Source: an uncultured Candidatus Binatia bacterium (GTDB taxonomy: Bacteria > Desulfobacterota > Binatia > UBA9968 > CAXXLF01). From it: a stretch of 64,000 bases of DNA. Each line of letters starts with the position of its first letter. The first letter of the stretch is position 1. A model generated the notes under the pieces. That model was not told the DNA's origin. It saw nothing but the letters and a program-made list of their open reading frames with translations, and ran no database searches. Of the stretch, positions 9,529 to 39,849 are shown piece by piece. Made by a program: the position numbers and the translations under genes. Where the stretch lies: NCBI GenBank assembly GCA_965218425.1, contig OZ244621.1, positions 3,584,001 to 3,648,000 of the forward strand. Direction: 5' to 3'.

Positions 9529-10443
9529 ATGAAGCTCAGGTGGGTTTCGGACGCGCCGCCCTGGAGTGGTCGAGCCGAGGCGGTGGTTGCCAAAGAGTTA
9601 GGGTTTTTCTCCGAGGCGGGTATAGAAGAAGCCGAAATTCAAATCATTCCAGGCGAACGCAATGCCATGGAGGCGCTGCTGGCCGGTGAGGCGGATCTCC
9701 TCTCGGGTATGGCCCGTAAGGCCATGATTGCCCACTCTCAGGGGTCCCCAGTCCGCATCGTCGCTCTTCCAATCCGTAAACTGAGGGCGGGCCTCGCGGT
9801 GGATCCTGCCATCGGAGACCCGAAAAATCTTACGGGCAAGACTGTCTCCGTAGGAATATTCGGTGCCATGGTTGAGCGTCTCGCCCGTATGTCCCTCCAA
9901 ATCCTCGGTGTCAACCCTGATGAGGTCAACTATATTGATGGAGGAACTGGGACCCTTCGCATGGAGCTGATTCGCAAAGGAGAATGTCAAGCTGCGGTCA
10001 TGATGAACATTAACCTCGTCGCAGCAAAGGCCGCTGGTTTTGATGTTTATGAAACCCTGAGCCAACGTTATTCCACTTATGCGTTCCACTCGTTAAGCAC
10101 AACCCACAAAGTGCTGGTGGAACAACCTGATCTGATCATTGCGGCCCTTGAGGGTTGTCTACGCGGCCATGAGGTGTTGATGGATCTTTCTCGAACCGAC
10201 GAAATCGCTCCTTATTTCACGTCACAAATCTATGGAGGGAGTCGCGAAGATTGGATCAATGAACTGAAAGAGGACATTCAGGCCTTCAATCCGAGCCATG
10301 CGCTCGAAGAAGATGCCTTTGCCAACGCGGTTCGCTTCGAGCAGGAGTTCGGATTGCTCCCGCCAGATTACGACTTTCGGGCGGTTCTAGAGGCCTGGCC
10401 CCTTGAGCGGGCCACGGCCCGGGTTAAGGCCGGGAAAGGCTAG
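9529..10443 (+). CDS. NMT1/THI5/SsuA-like PBP2-fold protein without signal peptide
   Basis: AKELGFFSEAGIE, ALLAGEAD, KNLTGKTV motifs. Confidence 0.75.
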   Translation: MKLRWVSDAPPWSGRAEAVVAKELGFFSEAGIEEAEIQIIPGERNAMEALLAGEADLLSGMARKAMIAHSQGSPVRIVALPIRKLRAGLAVDPAIGDPKNLTGKTVSVGIFGAMVERLARMSLQILGVNPDEVNYIDGGTGTLRMELIRKGECQAAVMMNINLVAAKAAGFDVYETLSQRYSTYAFHSLSTTHKVLVEQPDLIIAALEGCLRGHEVLMDLSRTDEIAPYFTSQIYGGSREDWINELKEDIQAFNPSHALEEDAFANAVRFEQEFGLLPPDYDFRAVLEAWPLERATARVKAGKG

Positions 10444-31288: not shown

Positions 31289-32371
31289 CTACTTGATGCC
31301 TAGTAGTTTGAAGAAGAAGGTTTCAGATTTCTTTTGAATCTTTGTATCAAACATCAGCTCCACGTCCATAGGCGTAGTGTTATCCACCGTGATGTCATTG
31401 TCCGTAAGCCATTTCCCGAGTTTACCGGCCTTGGCCTTTTTGTTGACTGGGACCTTAGCCGAAATAACTTCGGTGTATTCATGCTGTCCTTCGGGCGACG
31501 TGAGGTAGTCGATTAAGAGCCAGGAAGCAGATGGATGTTTAGCACCCTTGAGGATGCCAAAATTACGGAAGGTTCCGCTGAATCTAGGGAAGGCCACAAG
31601 GCCAATGGGTGCCCCTTTGAAATACATGCGAGAAGCTGGTCCCACCACGCCAAACCAAAACATCGGGACCTCGCCTGCGGCCACCCGCTTGATGCCGCCT
31701 CGATAACCCCGACCAATCATTGGTTTTTGTTTTGCCAGTTTTGTGAAGAAGTCGAAGGAGCGCTCCCAGTTCAATTTTCCACCCTTAGACCAGAAGTACG
31801 CCATTTGAGCAGGCATTTCCTCTGATGACCGAGACAACATAGTTTTGCCGGTCCATTTGGGGTCCGTCATCTCTTCCCAGGACTTGGGTATATCTTTGGG
31901 TGATACGAGCTTCGTATTATAGACTCCTTGCACTCTGGGATTCAAAAACGCCTTGATGTAAAGCCCATGCTTCGGTTGCGTTCCCGACGCGAAATCCCGT
32001 AGGTGGGGGAACTCGTGCTTGACCAACAGATTCGCCTTGGCCAAGATTTCTTCCCCATCGCTGCTGACGGCGGGCAAATCAAAGCTAAGCTTGCCGGCTT
32101 TGGATTCGGCGACGATTCGATTGATGGTATCGGCAGTGTTTCCTGCAAACGCTTTGAGTTTTAGAAATGGGTACCTCTTCTTAAATCCTTTGAGTTCATC
32201 ACGAAAATTATCGGCATTGCTGCCGGCCACAACGAATTCACCTTCTTTCTTGGCCTTCTCTATCATTTGATCGCGCAGCGAAGAACCATAAAGGGCTCCT
32301 GGTTGAAAACCCACGATTCCCACGACAAGCACTAAAACGGTCACCTGGTGTAATCTGAACACGAAACTCAT
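31289..32371 (-). CDS. ABC transporter extracellular solute-binding protein
   Basis: Signal peptide after ATG 32371 (AGAGG RBS); AKKEG, YNTKLV, DPKWTGK, AKHP. Confidence 0.85.
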   Translation of the reverse strand: MSFVFRLHQVTVLVLVVGIVGFQPGALYGSSLRDQMIEKAKKEGEFVVAGSNADNFRDELKGFKKRYPFLKLKAFAGNTADTINRIVAESKAGKLSFDLPAVSSDGEEILAKANLLVKHEFPHLRDFASGTQPKHGLYIKAFLNPRVQGVYNTKLVSPKDIPKSWEEMTDPKWTGKTMLSRSSEEMPAQMAYFWSKGGKLNWERSFDFFTKLAKQKPMIGRGYRGGIKRVAAGEVPMFWFGVVGPASRMYFKGAPIGLVAFPRFSGTFRNFGILKGAKHPSASWLLIDYLTSPEGQHEYTEVISAKVPVNKKAKAGKLGKWLTDNDITVDNTTPMDVELMFDTKIQKKSETFFFKLLGIK

Positions 32372-32527
32372 TATAATCCTCTTTTGGGTGATATCCCTTT
32401 GATATGACTGTGTTTCTATGACCGGTATGGTGTACGGCTTATTTACGAAACTAACCCGGGCAAGCAAATTGCCAAAGGGCCTTGTACTATGGCTATTGGA
32501 TTGAGTCAAGTGGCCGATTCGCCGGTC

Positions 32528-32556
32528 TTGACATTACCCAGAAGGGGGAATATAAA
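32528..32556 (+). promoter_or_regulatory. sigma70 promoter of pyr operon
   Basis: TTGACA-17 nt-TATAAA. Confidence 0.75.
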
Positions 32557-32570
32557 TATACAGGATATAA

Positions 32571-32602
32571 CCTTTTAAACTGATCCTGTGAGATCAGAAA
32601 GG
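32571..32602 (+). promoter_or_regulatory. PyrR-binding RNA hairpin (pyr attenuator)
   Basis: CCTTT-TAAA-CTGATC-CTGTGA-GATCAG-AAAGG resembles the Bacillus PyrR binding loop (CUUUAA...AGUCCAGAGAGGCU) and lies upstream of pyrR. Confidence 0.8.
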
Positions 32603-32636
32603 TATCGTGAAAAACAAGCAACTCGCAAATCATATG

Positions 32637-32673
32637 AAGACCCCCTGCGGTAGCTCCGTTGGGGTCTTTTTTT
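32637..32673 (+). terminator. Attenuator intrinsic terminator before pyrR
   Basis: AAGACCCC...GGGGTCTT followed by a T run, ending 5 nt before ATG 32678. Confidence 0.8.
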
Positions 32674-32677
32674 GTCT

Positions 32678-33265
32678 ATGGAAAGATTAGATCAGGTTTT
32701 ATTCCAGGGAGAAGACATCGAGCGGGCCACCAGTCGCATGGCCCACGAAATCCTCGAAAGTGAGGGGAATGGAGAAGGGCTGGCCCTTGTGGGGATTCAG
32801 ACCCGAGGCGCCCACTTGGTCCAAAGGATAGCCGAGAAAATCGGTTCTTTCAGCGGCACCGTTCCCCCTGTGGGGTCCATCGACGTAACCCCCTACCGCG
32901 ATGACCAGAAAGCAAAGGATGAGACTAGTCCACCCTCGGTTCAATTTCCAATCTCCATTGATGAAAAAACCTTGATCCTGGTGGACGATGTCATATACAC
33001 GGGTCGCACCATACGTGCTGCATTGGAATTGATTTTTCAACTTGGCAAGCCAAAGAGAATACTGGTGGCTGTATTGGTGGACCGGGGTGACAGGGAACTT
33101 CCCATCAAAGCGGATATCGTTGGCAAGAATGTGCGTGTGCCGGGATTGTCACGGGTCAATGTCCTGCTGAGTGAATTGGACGGGGTAGATCAGGTGACCG
33201 TAACTGAGGAGCAAGGCCTGAACCTTCACGGGGGAAATAGACCCCGAACCACAAACTCACGTTAA
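32678..33265 (+). CDS. pyrR: Bifunctional pyr operon attenuation regulator/uracil PRTase PyrR
   Basis: SRMAHEI, GIQTRG, DVTPYRDD, LVDDVIYTGRT, LVDRGDRELPI. Confidence 0.93.
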   Translation: MERLDQVLFQGEDIERATSRMAHEILESEGNGEGLALVGIQTRGAHLVQRIAEKIGSFSGTVPPVGSIDVTPYRDDQKAKDETSPPSVQFPISIDEKTLILVDDVIYTGRTIRAALELIFQLGKPKRILVAVLVDRGDRELPIKADIVGKNVRVPGLSRVNVLLSELDGVDQVTVTEEQGLNLHGGNRPRTTNSR

Positions 33266-33442
33266 TCCTTTTGGGGGAACCCCCTGGCCGGGAATGAACC
33301 ATGACTCTGAGGAGAAACTTAAAATTTGAATCCCTGTGCTCACGTACTGGGCGTTATGTTGTTCAACCTGCCTGTCGAGAGTCACTAGGTCGAGCGAGAG
33401 ACCATCGACAGGTGGTACGGGGTAAACGTTAAGGATTGAGCC

Positions 33443-35383
33443 GTGAATCAACGAGATCTCGTAACCATCGATGACCTTTCGGATGAAGAGATCGAGGAGA
33501 TCTTTCATCTAGCCGATGAAATGGAGTCCGGCGGACATCGTCTCCCAGAATCTTCCATGGTGCCGGGAAAGATTATGGCCACGCTCTTCTACGAACCCAG
33601 TACCAGGACACGTCTTTCCTTTGAATCCGCAATGCACCGACTGGGGGGGGGCGTCATCAGCTGTCCTGACATGAGGTTTTCTTCCACGGCCAAGGGGGAG
33701 AGTATCGCTGACACGGCCAAGGTGGTCTCCAGCTACGCCGACATTATGGTGGTGCGCCATTATTGGGACGGGGCGGTCCAGGCCATGGCGGAACACGCCG
33801 ATGTTCCAATGATCAATGCAGGTGACGGGAGTCATGAGCACCCAACCCAGACCCTCTGCGATCTCTATACCCTACGGAGGGAAAAGGGAAAGCTCAAGGG
33901 TTTAACCCTAGCCATTTGTGGAGACATGAAACATGGGCGAACCATCCATTCTCTCGTGTATGCCCTGGCACGGTTTGGAGTCAACGTTATTATTTTAGCC
34001 GCCAAGGGAATGGAGCTTCCCGAATACGTGATTGATCGAATGGATACTCAGTATCATTACAGCCCTGTTGCGGTTCCTTCCGGCGATCTGAACGCTGTGG
34101 TGACATCCACGGACGCGGTGTATCTCGCTCCGACTCAACCCCATCAGTTGGCCCTCTTCACACAGTCGAACCTGGACATCGAAGGTCAGTTGAGCAAGGC
34201 GGCCTCTGGGCTAAAACTGGACGCTTTCTACGTTACCCGTCAACAGAAGGAGCGTCAGACCGACAATGGTTCCGAGAACGATCAGGAGTATCCCCGGATC
34301 GACGAGAGGTTCTTAAAGATCAAGCGGTTCAAGGAAACGGTTGTGATGCACCCCTTGCCCCGGGTGGATGAACTGTCGCCGGAGGTGGACAAGGATCGAA
34401 GAGGGATCTATTTCAAGCAGGCTGCCTATGGAGTTCCCATTCGAATGGCTCTCCTGAAGTTTTTGTTCGATGCCTCGGAGGCCAAGAGGCCGCGTCCCGT
34501 GCGAAAGCAATACCTTCTCTTCGAAAATCCTGAGCCGGTGGGTCCGCAATGTCCCAATGCCAAATGCGTGACCCGTATGGAGGCCCCCTCCACTCGGCCA
34601 AGATTTGAAGTCCTGTTTACGGGTCCAGGAAGCGGGCTGATTCTCCGCTGTCTTTACTGTGATCACCAACTCCGGGTCCGTATCATCGGACATTTAAAGT
34701 CCAAGCGATATTGCTCCTACGACGCCACCTTGGAACAGACCACCCGGGAGTGGTTGAAGAGCGGAGAATTGGCCGTTTTCGATACCATAAAACAGGCCGA
34801 GGAGCAGTTTTATGAGCCCTATAAAACGGGTCCACAGCGAACGATCATGGATGAAGCTGAGATTCACGAAGCCATCCAGCACATAGCCGAACGAATTGTC
34901 AATGAGGCGGAAAGTCCCGTTCCTCTGCTCGTTCTCGGTATCCGAACCAAGGGAGTGTTTATCGCCAATCGCATGGTAGCTGAACTGGCCAGGCAGGGGA
35001 GAAAGGCGGAGGCGGGAGAGATTGAGGTATTTGGCACCCAGGGTGAAGAGGACGGCAAGCCACCCATCGCATCCGTGAACGATTCATTACCACTCAATAT
35101 AAAAAGCCGTCCCGTGGTTCTGGTGGACGACGTCATTCATACGGGTCGGACGGTGAAAAGCGCCCTTAGTATCATATTCAAATCGGGCCGGCCCCAATCC
35201 GTACGTTTGGCAGTCTTGATCGATAGGGGCCATCGCGAGGTGCCGGTAAAGCCCAATTATATAGGTAAGCACATACCGAGTTCAGAAAGGGAACGAGTTC
35301 GCGTCAAGCTACGCGAGGTGGAAAAGGATGAGCGGGATAAAGTGGTTATCTATTCGGTGATCAATCCAACGGTCCCCGGGTAG
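33443..35383 (+). CDS. pyrB: Aspartate carbamoyltransferase fused to a PyrI-type Zn domain and a PyrR-like PRTase domain
   Basis: [27 protein letters not shown]...[15 protein letters not shown] and IDRGHRE. Confidence 0.9.
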
Positions 35384-35397
35384 CGGACCCTCACTGG

Positions 35398-36522
35398 ATG
35401 AAAGCGGTACTGGCATTAGCGGACGGTGAGGTTTACGTGGGTCGATCCTTCGGTAGTGAAGGCGAGGCCGGAGGTGAGGTGGTGTTTAACACGAGCATGA
35501 CCGGATACCAGGAAATTTTGACGGATCCCTCCTATGAGGGACAAATGGTGGCCATGACCTATCCTGAAATCGGCAATGTTGGGGTTAACCCCGAGGACGT
35601 GGAGTCGCGTAAAGCTTTTGTGAAAGGATTCATTGTCAAGGAGTATTCACCTGTTCCCAGTAACTGGCGCTCTGCGGAGTCCTTGCACCGGTACATGAAA
35701 GAAAACGGCATTGTAGGCATTGAAGGGATCGACACGAGATCTCTGGTCAGACATTTGCGTGATAGCGGTTCCCAAGAAGGAATCATTTCGACGGGCGAGC
35801 AAAACCAGCAGGAACTCATTGCCAAGGCCCAAAGCTCGCCGGGTTTGCTTGGAAGAGATCTGGTGAAGGAAGTGACTTGCAAAGAGCCCTACGGCTGGGA
35901 CCGTGGAATTTGGGAGTTAGGCAAGGGCTATCAGGCGCAGGGGCAAACGGCTTACTCCGTGGTGGCCTACAACTACGGCATCAAGTTCAATATCCTACGG
36001 GGTCTGGTGGAGTCGGGATGCAATGTTAAGGTGGTTCCGGCCCGGACCTCGGCAGAGGATGTGTTGGCTGAAAACCCCGATGGGATATTTCTTTCCAATG
36101 GGCCAGGGGACCCCGATGCGGTTCCCTATGGAAAAGAAATCGTGCAGAAACTCGTTGGTGAGAAGCCTATCTTCGGGATTTGCTTGGGTCATCAGATTTT
36201 AGGTCTCGCTCTGGGGGGTAAGACCTATAAGTTGAAGTTTGGTCACCATGGCGGGAACCAACCAGTCATGAACCTAACGACAAAAAAAGTAGAGATCACG
36301 ACTCAGAATCATGGGTTTGCCGTGGACCCAGACTCATTGCAGGGATCGGCGGTGGTAACCCACCTAAACCTCAATGATCATACGGTGGAAGGGCTGGCTC
36401 ATAAGGCGCTACCCATCTTTTCCGTTCAGTATCACCCGGAATCTTCACCCGGCCCTCACGATGCCCACTACCTATTCCAGAGGTTTGTGGAGATGATGAA
36501 ACACAGAAAGAAATATGTTTAA
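35398..36522 (+). CDS. carA: Carbamoyl-phosphate synthase small subunit
   Basis: [29 protein letters not shown]. Confidence 0.97.
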
Positions 36523-36591: not shown

Positions 36592-39500
36592 ATGCCTAAA
36601 CGGACCGACATCAAATCAGTATTGCTCATCGGCTCAGGTCCCATTGTTATCGGTCAGGTCTGCGAGTTCGACTATTCGGGAACCCAGGCCCTCAAGGCCC
36701 TTAAAGAAGAGGGCTACCGGGTGGTTTTAGTCAACTCCAACCCGGCCACCATCATGACCGACCCTGACTTTGCGGACCGAACCTACGTTGAGCCCATCAC
36801 GGTTGACATGGTTGAAAAGATCATCGGCAAAGAGCGACCGGATGCGTTGCTTTCCACACTGGGAGGGCAGACCGCATTGAATGTTGCCATTGACCTGGCC
36901 GAGCAGGGGATCCTCCAGCAATACGGGGTGGAGATGATCGGGGCGAAGCTAGAGGCCATCAAAAAGGCAGAGGACCGTGACCTATTCAAGCTGGCAATGA
37001 GCAAGGTGGGACTGGACCTGCCCAGGAGCGGCTATGCGCACAGTTTGGACGAGGCCCTTGAGATACAACGGGAGCTCAACTTTCCACTGGTGATTCGACC
37101 TTCGCGAACCTTAGGGGGGAGCGGCGCCAGTATTGCTTATGGCCCAGAGCAATTTACCGAGGCGGTTACCTGGGGTCTGAAACTATCACCGGTACACGAG
37201 GTGCTGGTGGAGGAATCGGTCTTGGGATGGAAAGAATTTGAGCTGGAGGTCATGCGTGACCACAAGGACAATGTGGTCATCGTTTGCTCCATTGAGAACT
37301 TCGATCCCATGGGGGTTCACACGGGGGATTCCATTACCGTAGCCCCTGCCCAGACTCTCACGGACAAAGAGTATCAGATCATGAGGGATGCGGCGCTCAA
37401 GATCATACGCGAGATAGTCGTGGATACGGGTGGATCCAATATTCAGTTTGCCGTGAACCCGAACAACGGTCGACTGGTGGTGACCGAGATGAATCCACGG
37501 GTTTCCAGGAGTTCGGCCCTGGCCAGTAAGGCAACAGGCTTTCCCATTGCCAAGATCGCCGCGAAACTGGCGGTGGGTTATACCCTTGATGAAATACCAA
37601 ATGACATTACCCGGGAAACCCGGGCGTGCTTTGAGCCCACCATCGATTATGTGGTGGTAAAGATCCCCCGATTTACCTTTGAAAAGTTTCCACAGGCTAC
37701 GGATTTTCTCACCACTCAAATGAAATCCGTGGGGGAGGCCATGGCCATCGGTCGTACTTTTAAAGAAGCCCTGCAAAAGGCCGTGCGATCACTGGAAGTG
37801 GGATCCTATGGCTTTGATGAGAGGCTCATGCCTGAAGGGGACCACGAGAAAATTGACGGGTTTATCACTCAAAAACTGCAGACCCCCAATGCCCAACGCT
37901 TATGGTACTTAGCCGAAGCTTTCCGCAGGGGATATTCCGTGAGGGACCTTTTCCAGTTAACTCGAATCGACCCTTGGTTTTTAGAGCGCCTGCGCGAAAT
38001 CGTGGAGACTGAGTCCGAAATCCAGCAGTGGAATAAGGCGACACCGCCCATGGGTGAGTTTCTTTATACGGTGAAGCAGATGGGATTCTCTGATCGGCGG
38101 TTGGCTCATCTCATGGGCCGCAGTGAGGCAGAAATACGTTCATCTCGCTTGCAGTACGGAATCCGTGCGGTATTTCGCACTGTGGACACCTGCGCAGCGG
38201 AGTTTGCCGCCTACACACCCTACCTCTATTCCACCTACGATGAAGGAGAAGACGAGTCGAACCCCAGCGGACGAAAAAAAATTATGATCCTTGGGGGAGG
38301 ACCCAACCGCATCGGTCAAGGCATTGAGTTCGACTATTGCTGTGTCCACGCGGCCTTCGCCTTGAAGGAGGATGGCTACGAGACTATCATGGTCAACTGC
38401 AACCCGGAGACGGTGAGCACCGACTACGACACTTCGGATAAACTTTATTTCGAACCACTTACTTTGGAAGATGTTCTCAGCATCGTGGATGTGGAAAAAC
38501 CGGATGGGGTGATCGTTCAGTTTGGGGGACAAACCCCACTCAGGTTAGCCCTGTCTCTGGAAAAGGCCGGCGTCAAGCTCATCGGGACCTCGCCTGATAG
38601 CATCGATCTTGCGGAAGATCGGGACAGGTTTAGAGAGCTCCTCCAGGCGCTCGGTTTGAAGCAACCCGTGAGCGGCAGCGCCCGTTCCTATGAGGAGGGA
38701 AAGGAGATTGCTGAACGGATTGGCTACCCGGTTTTGGTGCGTCCCTCCTATGTTCTGGGAGGGAGGGCCATGGATATCGTTTATGATGAGACTGACCTGA
38801 AGCTCTACATGACCAATGCGGTCGCCGCTTCGCCTGAGCACCCCGTGTTGATTGACGAGTTCTTGGACGATGCCGTTGAGGTGGACGTGGACGCTTTGGC
38901 TGACGGAGAAGACGTGGTCATTGGTGGAATCATGGAGCACATCGAACGGGCTGGCGTTCACTCCGGGGATAGCGCCTGTTCACTACCGCCGAAATCCATT
39001 GATGATTGCGTCCAGGATGAAATCCGACGCCAGACGGTTTCCCTGGCCCGGGCACTTGGTGTCAGGGGGCTCATGAACGTGCAGTTTGCAGTTAAGGGAA
39101 CCGAGGTTTTTATACTAGAGGTTAACCCGCGGGCTTCTAGAACCGTGCCTTTTGTGAGCAAGGCCATAGGGATCCCCCTGGCCAAAATGGCGGCACGGGT
39201 AACGGTGGGGCAAAGGCTTAGAGACCTGGGTATGAGCTCCGAGGTCGTGCCCACCCATATCGCTGTCAAAGAATCGGTTTTTCCCTTTAGCAAGTTTCCC
39301 GGTGTGGACACCCTGCTGGGTCCGGAAATGAAATCCACCGGGGAGGTGATGGGTATCGATCATTCCTTTGGTCAGGCCTTTGCAAAGGCTCAGCTGGGAG
39401 GCGGAATGCGCTTGCCCCAGACCGGAAGGGTCTTTATCAGTATTCGCGATGAACACAAGGAAAGGGCCGGCGCCATCGCCCATAGGCTCCATAAGATTGG

Positions 39501-39849
39501 CTTTCGGGTTTTAGCCACCAAGGGCACTGCCGCGTTTTTTGAAAAGAAAAATATTCCTGCCGAGGTAATCAACAAGGTGCAGGAAGGAAGCCCGCATGTG
39601 GTGGACGCCATTCAATGCGGTGAGGTGGCCATGGTCATCAACACTCCCACGGACGCCCACTCCCAGGCCGACTCCTACTATATCCGTCGAAACGCCTTGG
39701 ACTTTCAGATTCCTTACTTTACTACCATTGCAGGCGCAGATGCGGCGGTGGAAGGGATCGAATTGTTGAAGGATGGTGATCTGGTGGTTCGAGCGCTTCA
39801 AGAATACCGGGCCACAACCCGTCGTGTTACTGAACCGTCAACTGAATGA
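36592..39849 (+). CDS. carB: Carbamoyl-phosphate synthase large subunit
   Basis: [30 protein letters not shown], duplicated ATP-grasp domains, MGS domain. Confidence 0.97.

Follow-up and report, generated by a model that had tools for sequence, protein, structure and literature searches.

A PyrR-derived domain fused to an aspartate transcarbamylase with a PyrI-type zinc domain in Candidatus Binatia, a candidate replacement for the PyrI allosteric domain

A gene of an uncultured Candidatus Binatia bacterium (GenBank assembly GCA_965218425.1) was found to encode, in one polypeptide, a complete aspartate transcarbamylase (ATCase) catalytic chain, a PyrI-type zinc domain, a mini-domain and a full-length PyrR-like phosphoribosyltransferase (PRTase) domain, a composition that was confirmed by the analyses below. 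The gene lies at 33443..35383 of the window, the 64,000-nucleotide stretch of contig OZ244621.1 (positions 3,584,001 to 3,648,000) that was analysed; all features located by window coordinates lie on its plus strand. In classical ATCase the catalytic chain is held by the zinc domain of PyrI, whereas nucleotide binding and pairing fall to the allosteric domain of PyrI, three PyrI dimers linking two catalytic trimers. By analogy, the fused PyrR domain is considered rather likely to be a ligand-sensing, dimerizing and trimer-bridging regulatory module that replaces the PyrI allosteric domain, with the oligomer, the ligand binding and the regulation being what we infer. This reading is favoured because the protein keeps the zinc domain, the class lacks the allosteric domain (PF01948), and a natural dimer and nucleotide binder stands in the place of the latter.

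The open reading frame (ORF) starts with GTG and specifies 646 aa followed by a stop codon. Pfam searches identified OTCace_N (aa 4–145, E 3e-51), OTCace (split over two stretches, the best being aa 257–340, E 2e-22), PyrI_C (PF02748; aa 369–413, E 5e-6, 26.7 bits with the gathering score at 23.4) and Pribosyltran (aa 473–608, E 8e-20). Among the NCBIfam models, the N-terminal part scored above the cut-offs of TIGR00670 asp_carb_tr (302.6 bits, cut-off 236.95) and NF002032 (289.5 bits, cut-off 263), and the C-terminal part above that of the PyrR model NF003549 (146.6 bits, cut-off 138, aa 465–637). The fused PyrR domain fell below the cut-offs of four other PyrR models, namely NF003547 (138.7 bits against 230), NF003548 (134.5 against 218), NF003546 (110 against 268) and NF003545 (93.3 against 140). 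It could be aligned over its full length with the solved PyrRs 4p81, 1a3c, 1non, 1ufr and 1w30 (E 1e-34 to 3e-29), the hypoxanthine phosphoribosyltransferases (HPRTs) being the next-best PDB matches after the PyrRs. Pfam, NCBIfam and PDB alignments therefore agreed with a sequence-only reading of this DNA, made before any database search, in which the catalytic chain is followed by only the zinc part of PyrI and then by a PyrR-like domain. The three domains named in that reading all stood, but the stretch between the zinc and PyrR domains, which it had taken for a linker, proved to be a fourth conserved unit, the mini-domain. Automatic annotation names the fusion proteins 'aspartate carbamoyltransferase', with one JGI record carrying a compound name.

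The catalytic part (aa 1–345; 33443..34477) was delimited by TIGR00670, motif residues and model confidence. The catalytic-site residues S53, R55, T56, R105, H106, H133, P134, Q136, R166, R266, Q268 and H303-P-L-P-R307 were invariant in 80 aligned sequences, and include what we take to be the STRTR, HPTQ and HPLPR motifs of the carbamoyl-phosphate and aspartate sites. The predicted local distance difference test (pLDDT) values of the model of this part were mostly 85–96, being low only at aa 233–249 and 274–278. The aspartate-binding domain has approximately 40 extra residues compared with ATCase models of approximately 300 aa, with inserts at aa 233–249 (window 34139–34189) and aa 270–290 (34250–34312); the first insert presumably occupies the place of the mobile 240s loop of E. 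coli ATCase.

The genome is a closed single contig of 4.46 Mb with 97.3% completeness. OTCace_N was found in the fusion and in one other gene only; since the latter is an ornithine carbamoyltransferase (438 bits), the fusion is the only ATCase of this genome. No PF01948 domain was detected in the ORF or in the closed genome (E <= 1), as had been read from the sequence for the N-terminal domain of PyrI, and PF01948 was found in none of 201 genomes of the class, with control genomes matching as expected. PyrI_C was found in the fusion gene only (30.4 bits in the genome scan, gathering score 23.4). Only two PyrR-like sequences are present in the genome, the fused copy and a neighbouring free copy.

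The zinc domain (approx. aa 358–417; 34514..34693) was assigned from PF02748, four cysteines and fold matches. The four cysteines, C370, C375, C403 and C406, were invariant in an alignment of 82 homologues. A model of aa 346–470 (pLDDT 77.3) was compared with the PDB by Foldseek and by VIA-align (48,161 representative chains). In Foldseek, the 25 best-ranked PDB structures were without exception ATCase regulatory chains (root-mean-square deviation 1.6–2.5 Å, 42–56 columns, probability 0.96–1.00), with E-values of 5e-3 to 0.2, none of which reached E <= 0.001 because the domain is small. The best two VIA-align matches were also regulatory chains, 2be7_D (Z 6.7, deviation 1.4 Å, 47 aligned, chain residues 100–146) and 2yww_B (Z 5.9). 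As regulatory chains topped both fold rankings, the segment was identified as the zinc domain of PyrI.

The mini-domain (approx. aa 418–460; 34694..34822) was delimited by its predicted β-α-β-α secondary structure, modelled with pLDDT 86–90, and has no Pfam match. Its best fold match was N-Ada, the part of Ada that repairs methyl phosphotriesters (1u8b_A, Z 4.6, deviation 2.1 Å, 45 aligned), followed by a second N-Ada structure in VIA-align (1eyf_A, Z 3.7), both weak matches in the range where chance similarities are common. It lacks a Cys4 site and, having only one cysteine (C424), is not an Ada-type zinc site; C424 lies outside the invariant columns. A connector with the consensus F/GYEPYKxGPQR (aa 456–466; 34808..34840) was conserved in the alignment of 28 fused sequences, P459 and R466 being present in 100% and Y460, G463 and P464 in 89–93%.

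The PyrR-derived PRTase domain (aa 466–638; 34838..35356), delimited by NF003549 and the PDB PyrR alignments, was compared in an alignment of 28 fused domains, 23 free PyrRs from the same loci and 48 other PyrRs, the last group having been collected by means of peptide patterns derived from the fused domain. The loop that binds phosphoribosyl pyrophosphate (PRPP) or the 5'-phosphate (aa 560–570; 35120..35152) was retained in the 28 fused domains as L560-V-D-D-V-I-x-T-G-R-T570, with D562, D563, V564, G568 and T570 in 100% of them, and A574, G582, D594-R-G-x-R-E-x-P601, G608 and K609 were also kept. The R-D-D motif of the flexible loop was present in 100% of the 23 free and 48 other PyrRs, whereas the corresponding columns in the fused copies were G (64%), D (46%) and D (46%), and in the window's fused copy Q533-G534-E535 (within EVFGTQGEE). 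These columns lie outside the bias introduced by the pattern selection, and three solved PyrR sequences likewise show YRDD.

In helix 1, R22 (numbering of the free copy) was found in 100% of free and 75% of other PyrRs and was replaced by Q or H in fused copies (Q in 50%), whilst H25 was found in 100% of free and 44% of other PyrRs and was replaced by E in fused copies (46%). The window's fused copy has Q479, H480, E483 and E488 at the aligned helix-1 positions. Further changes in the fused copies affected E29 (altered), R45 (to K), D71 (to E), R115 (to K) and D148 (to N). The sequence-only reading, in which the fused copy had kept the PRPP loop (aa 561–570) but neither the RDD loop nor the basic residues of helix 1, thus held across the 28 fused domains. 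The free pyrR gene (32672..33265, 197 aa from a TTG start; NF003549 190.6 bits, cut-off 138) retains R22, H25 and R76-D77-D78, and both motifs that had been ascribed to it, RATSRMAHEI and DVTPYRDD, are present, as are all motifs that the sequence-only reading had cited for the fusion.

The architecture recurs widely. A word-indexed search with aa 340–646 retrieved 694 metagenome proteins at E <= 1e-3; among the best 120 of these, 110 were 629–673 aa long and contained OTCace_N, OTCace and Pribosyltran, and the other 10 were N-terminally truncated, on short contigs. A scan of one genome per species gave 80 loci, comprising 56 ordinary PyrRs and 24 loci in metagenome-assembled genomes (MAGs) that matched the entire zinc–mini-domain–PyrR module at 52–92% identity. 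The latter were labelled Candidatus Binatia (11), Deltaproteobacteria or delta proteobacterium (11), Syntrophobacteraceae (one) and Candidatus Acidiferrales (one). The fusion was a single open frame in all 24 loci, with free pyrR directly upstream in 22 (the remaining two being cut at the 5' end) and a carA homologue following in 23 (the 24th stopping just past the fusion). Relatives within the class at approximately 45% identity had the same pyrR–fusion pair in 5/5 complete loci and in 4/4 further loci.

A query with the zinc domain and mini-domain (aa 346–466) matched 8 genomes in a sample of 401 from the GTDB phylum and, in the class, 173 of 401 genomes, including 126 of 271 high-quality genomes. 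As counted in genome samples with this single query, matches were found in the class families f1 (3/3), f2 (56/64), f7 (93/94), f116 (19/19) and f9 (1/1), and in none of 234 genomes searched in 15 other families of the class. The fusion is therefore not a singleton, being a trait of five families of the class, and the combination OTCace + PyrI_C + Pribosyltran, named in the sequence-only reading as a possibly new architecture, is a recurrent one in the 24 MAG loci and 173/401 class genomes.

Contigs of four runs from three studies showed 0–1 differences from the window over 33400–35450, with no indel, joint or loose end. Two contigs spanned the full gene (one of which may be the window's own source) and pieces from the third study bridged both domain junctions, contig sets X4 and X5 leaving parts of the interval uncovered. 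The stop or misassembly between domains that might have explained the fusion away was thus not encountered in contigs of three studies, and, given the recurrence in independent loci and the unbroken contigs over the junctions, the fusion is neither a chance event nor a misassembly.

Two apparent variants of the architecture were considered and rejected. P0138 (327 aa) and P0247 (313 aa), which at first sight are split forms with free zinc–PyrR subunits, start at an internal Met in the last PyrB helix and are truncations, and a genome hit matching a split form (G174) is cut by the contig end at base 10299; no true split form was found among the forms examined, but no search aimed at shorter lengths was made. 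Frames of 808–901 aa that suggested a four-domain PyrR–PyrB–Zn–PyrR protein owed their extra length, in 4/4 loci, to a chance open frame overlapping free pyrR, which in these loci (GC 62–72%) has its own frame and stop codon. A contig labelled Candidatus Acidiferrales / Acidoferrales (L035 and P0121) carries the fusion and nested beside L031 within the Binatia-labelled clade in both PyrR trees, which suggests either a mismatch of the bin label or a transfer.

Two copies of aa 414–646 were predicted to pair with an interface score (ipSAE) of 0.54 in three runs, compared with a best value of 0.00 among three controls. A score of this level was attained by 20/30 solved homodimers and 1/23 single chains. 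Contacts agreed 100% between runs and the pLDDT of the partner was at least 78. The predicted interface is two-fold symmetric (contacts 602–602, 603–603 and 575–575) and is formed by aa 571–579, 585–589 and 598–605. The prediction speaks for self-association, but the score may stem from likeness to solved PyrR dimers. As the interface comprises the helix immediately after the PRPP loop and the R-E-x-P segment, a ligand in the PRPP site could plausibly alter the geometry of the dimer. Positions that discriminate fused from free copies were mildly enriched in the predicted interface (4/20 compared with 9/153; Fisher p = 0.047, the positions not being independent), which fits weakly with a mutual insulation of the two paralogues.

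In the mechanism proposed, the PyrI-type zinc domain would dock on a catalytic chain, as in the E. coli holoenzyme, and the mini-domain and the GYEPYKxGPQR connector would join it to the PyrR-derived PRTase domain. The PyrR-derived domains would pair on a two-fold axis, and three such dimers would connect two catalytic trimers, giving a hexamer of fused chains, the bridging role that the allosteric-domain dimer of PyrI has in E. coli. The PRPP/nucleotide site beside the predicted dimer contact would bind a phosphoribosyl ligand and so shift ATCase activity. PMC7430163 describes the binding of the uridine nucleotides UMP and UTP and of the guanosine nucleotides GMP and GTP by PyrR. UMP or UTP would be the likeliest ligands, with GMP/GTP, PRPP and guanosine tetra- or pentaphosphate [(p)ppGpp] as possible antagonists or alternatives. 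The last is a candidate since HPRT, a related protein, takes up (p)ppGpp in its PRPP site, where the nucleotide acts via an oligomeric interface (PMC6783271). Free PyrR would keep the ancestral RNA attenuation of the same operon, so that the two paralogues would split gene-level and enzyme-level feedback between them.

The evolutionary setting was explored by an HMMER search of 1.84 billion representatives, 34 of which were scanned with Pfam. Three were three-domain forms (61, 45 and 44% identity), 21 contained PyrB and PyrI_C without a PRTase domain (415–492 aa), six had transcarbamylase domains only (E <= 1e-3) and four were C-terminal fragments. The PyrB–Zn forms of approximately 470–490 aa include the mini-domain, as the match reaches approximately residue 466 of the query. 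This PyrB–Zn(–mini-domain) family is apparently undescribed (P0126, P0128-P0137, P0139, P0143, P0144, P0148, P0150, P0155, P0158, P0161, P0169 and P0194); names were available for a few of its members, which come from Dehalococcoidia and Anaerolineales MAGs and are annotated as 'hypothetical protein'. Outside the window's class but within its phylum, one genome also carries a 468-aa PyrB–Zn form (L099:2273-3679, minus strand). Such fusions are probably the ancestral state of the PyrR fusion, and the PyrR domain seems, from these sequence comparisons, to have been added to a pre-existing PyrB–Zn–mini-domain enzyme, the order of events being one that we infer.

In trees of the PyrR domain, the fused copies formed one clade (SH-aLRT branch support 95; 100 after trimming) and the free copies another (88; 80), with mirrored inner branching, which indicates that the free/fused pair has been co-inherited since before the families split. 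The fused copy had been proposed to be a duplicate of the neighbouring pyrR, and here the evidence was divided. In the best trees the fused clade was not sister to the free clade and adjoined Clostridia-type PyrRs (SH-aLRT 95), the outgroup being pattern-selected and hence biased; once the pattern columns and nine long rows had been removed, the approximately unbiased test did not reject a single clade of fused and free copies (p = 0.275). An origin of the fused copy by local duplication is thus possible.

A number of observations weigh against a sensing role of the fused domain and are taken together here. The PyrB–Zn fusions without a sensor in other lineages (21/34) imply that the zinc module has a role independent of PyrR. 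The family f7 and f9 relatives (L093-L097) have a DDVINSGWT or DDVMNTGWT loop in which Arg is replaced by Trp, and in f7 this could point to another ligand or to no ligand at all. The agreement of the other PyrRs with the fused domain at aa 561–568 and 603–610 arises by construction, because these sequences were retrieved by pattern. The full-length model is of low confidence at aa 594–646 and in the connector at aa 462–468, so the packing of the domains is not fixed by it. The argument for a loss of RNA binding depends on R22 and H25 being, as we assume, equivalent to R19 and H22 of B. subtilis on the RNA-binding surface (helix-1 set T18, R19, H22, R27). Net charge was tried as a proxy for RNA binding and set aside as not decisive, the core medians of −2 (free), +2 (fused) and −3 (other) leaving the three groups not clearly separated. 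Finally, no upp gene was found in the closed genome, the best TIGR01091 match being free pyrR with 17 bits; with no canonical upp, any uracil phosphoribosyltransferase (UPRTase) activity would come from a PyrR copy, and a catalytic UPRTase role for one of the two copies is accordingly possible on gene content. As a separate observation, f7 is the largest family with the fusion, and its loop Arg-to-Trp replacement is a lineage-specific change.

The alternative that fares best among those considered is that the PyrR-derived domain is a structural scaffold only, which would dimerize and hold two trimers together for stability or cooperativity and be blind to ligands. The predicted homodimer, the related PyrB–Zn(–mini-domain) enzymes that work without a sensor, the Trp in the f7 loop and the missing RDD motif of the catalytic loop all accord with a scaffold. 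However, a scaffold would not need a conserved phosphate loop and DRGxRE-P block, and both the DD...[ST]GxT loop and this block were invariant or nearly so, both among the 28 fused domains and in the more remote forms of f7 and f9. Selection also speaks against it. Ratios of non-synonymous to synonymous substitution (Nei–Gojobori, six pairs of relatives) were 0.056–0.119 for the catalytic part, 0.059–0.348 for the zinc and mini-domain part and 0.086–0.253 for the PyrR part, the last lying at 0.09–0.12 in 5/6 pairs, and all segments of the fusion are under purifying selection. A ligand-blind scaffold is therefore regarded as unlikely.

That the fused domain is a working phosphoribosyltransferase, for uracil or another base, coupling salvage to de novo synthesis, is a quite improbable explanation. 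The genome without upp, both Asp residues in the PRPP loop and a score above the cut-off of one PyrR equivalog model would suit an active enzyme. Against this, the RDD motif that is invariant in all 71 free and other PyrRs was not conserved in the fused copies, the adjoining free PyrR keeps RDD and could supply UPRTase activity, and the scores fell below the cut-offs of the four other PyrR models.

A role as an RNA-binding regulator or as a partner of free PyrR, in which the fused domain would bind the pyr leader RNA or form heterodimers and thereby couple the state of the enzyme to attenuation, appears highly improbable. The complete PyrR fold, the R598, E599 and P601 of DRGxRE-P that are common to free PyrR, the retained K609 and a predicted interface in a region conserved also in free PyrRs would be compatible with it. 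RNA binding by PyrR involves a basic concave surface (PMC7430163). In the fused copies, by contrast, R22 and H25 of helix 1 have given way to Q/H and E and the helix is more acidic (median charge −3, compared with −1 in free and +1 in other PyrRs). The region contains a single PyrR-binding RNA site, described below, and the mild enrichment of discriminating positions in the interface weakly favours insulation of the paralogues. An artefact by which misassembly, frameshift or read-through joined separate pyrB, pyrI-like and pyrR genes has a negligible chance of being the explanation, given the uninterrupted ORF in 24 MAG loci from many projects, in further genomes and in hundreds of metagenome proteins, the intact contigs of four runs and the origin of the short 'split' forms in contig-end cuts or internal-Met starts.

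The preferred reading, a regulatory PyrR-derived module next to a free attenuator, is set in a pyrR–pyrB*–carAB cluster in which pyrB* is the fusion. A PyrR-binding RNA element (Rfam RF00515; 32567..32675), consisting of a binding hairpin followed by a terminator-like hairpin and U-tract, lies in the leader of this cluster. It scored 48.6 bits, just below the gathering score of 54, with E 2.9e-4 when 14 kb were searched and 2.7e-5 for a 1.3-kb stretch. The terminator-like site is at 32653–32665 and is followed by CTTTTTTTGT. Besides the binding hairpin, the element has a GC-rich hairpin and a U-tract that extends into the start of pyrR. RF00515 was also found just 5' of pyrR in 6/8 related loci (43.6–56 bits). 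No second RF00515 site was detected at E <= 10 within 32300–33600, and the one site adjoins free pyrR and is not assignable to either protein by sequence. The listed TTG start of pyrR (window 32672–32680) falls inside the U-tract of the leader terminator, and the ATG at 32678, two codons on, may be the true start.

In the ORF list, carA (35398..36522) directly follows the fusion and carB (36592..39849) precedes a recG-like gene. The sequence-only reading had correctly remarked that pyrC is missing between the fusion and carA in the window; the gene was located approximately 97 kb away on the minus strand, outside the window (G000:C1:3716519-3717787). Since distant relatives in family f7 keep pyrC between the fusion and carA (L094:3962-5320; TIGR00857, 372.5 bits), its absence represents a later rearrangement in the window's lineage. 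In one MAG locus (L034:4961-8899) an ORF of 1312 aa begins as carA and stays open up to the locus end; it may be a carA–carB fusion in that MAG.

If the proposed role is true, the fusion would be of interest beyond this group. ATCase is a textbook model of allostery, and a swap of its sensor with the zinc adaptor kept would amount to a natural experiment on the exchange of allosteric modules and on how signalling through the zinc domain copes with a sensor of another kind. The PyrR pair would be a case of subfunctionalization of paralogues into an RNA-binding regulator and an enzyme-bound sensor, and, for the uncultured class Binatia, would offer an initial functional entry point to the control of pyrimidine metabolism. 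In titles and abstracts, with subscription journals mostly uncovered, and in the transcarbamylase review PMC4581275, no publication was found on a PyrB–PyrR fusion or an ATCase with a PyrR-type domain, or on PyrB–PyrI_C without the allosteric domain. Three quaternary types of bacterial ATCase are distinguished in PMC4581275. Tentatively, and with somewhat less conviction than attaches to the regulatory module itself, the fusion may represent a fourth natural solution to ATCase regulation. In this proposal a PyrR-derived PRTase-fold domain would replace the PyrI allosteric domain, bridge the trimers and read a phosphoribosyl ligand (UMP/UTP against GMP/GTP, PRPP or ppGpp), the ancient PyrR pair would combine RNA attenuation (free copy) with allostery (fused copy), and the precursor, still devoid of a sensor, would be represented by the PyrB–Zn–mini-domain enzymes found in MAGs with Chloroflexota labels.

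The E. coli-type ATCase (PyrB6–PyrI6, class B) shares with the window's protein the catalytic chain and the Cys4 PyrI-type zinc domain and, if the proposed arrangement is right, also the docking of the zinc domain on the catalytic chain and its connection to a second, nucleotide-binding and dimerizing domain. In contrast to the E. coli type, the regulatory part of the window's protein is fused to the catalytic C-terminus, PF01948 is absent, and the candidate sensor, which is of the PRTase fold, comes after the zinc domain, with an extra mini-domain between, whereas the allosteric domain of PyrI precedes the zinc domain. The fused PyrB–PyrI ATCase of Thermotoga maritima (Chen et al. 1998, cited in PMC4581275) likewise unites catalytic and regulatory functions in one polypeptide (NF009916). 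The Thermotoga type, however, fuses a complete PyrI with both allosteric and zinc domains, and the window's protein, which has no allosteric domain, reached only 94.6 bits against the NF009916 cut-off of 800, over aa 4–203 only. The PyrB–PyrI_C(–mini-domain) fusions (approx. 400–490 aa) resemble it in the catalytic chain, the zinc domain and, in the forms of approximately 470–490 aa, the mini-domain, but carry no PRTase domain.

Among PRTase-fold proteins, the attenuator and UPRTase PyrR (B. subtilis 1a3c, B. caldolyticus 1non, M. tuberculosis 1w30, T. thermophilus 1ufr) has the same fold over its whole length, the PRPP loop, DRGxRE-P and a two-fold dimer such as that predicted here. The window's domain differs from PyrR in its position at the end of an enzyme, in lacking RDD and the helix-1 basic residues and in having no RNA site assigned to it. 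HPRT under (p)ppGpp control (PMC6783271) also has the type I PRTase fold, with a regulatory nucleotide in the PRPP site and an oligomer contact; in HPRT, however, it is the protein's own PRTase activity that is regulated, whereas the window's PRTase-fold domain would regulate a fused, unrelated enzyme. Compared with these systems, the catalytic chain and the zinc adaptor are known components, and what is new is the candidate sensor and the order of the domains.

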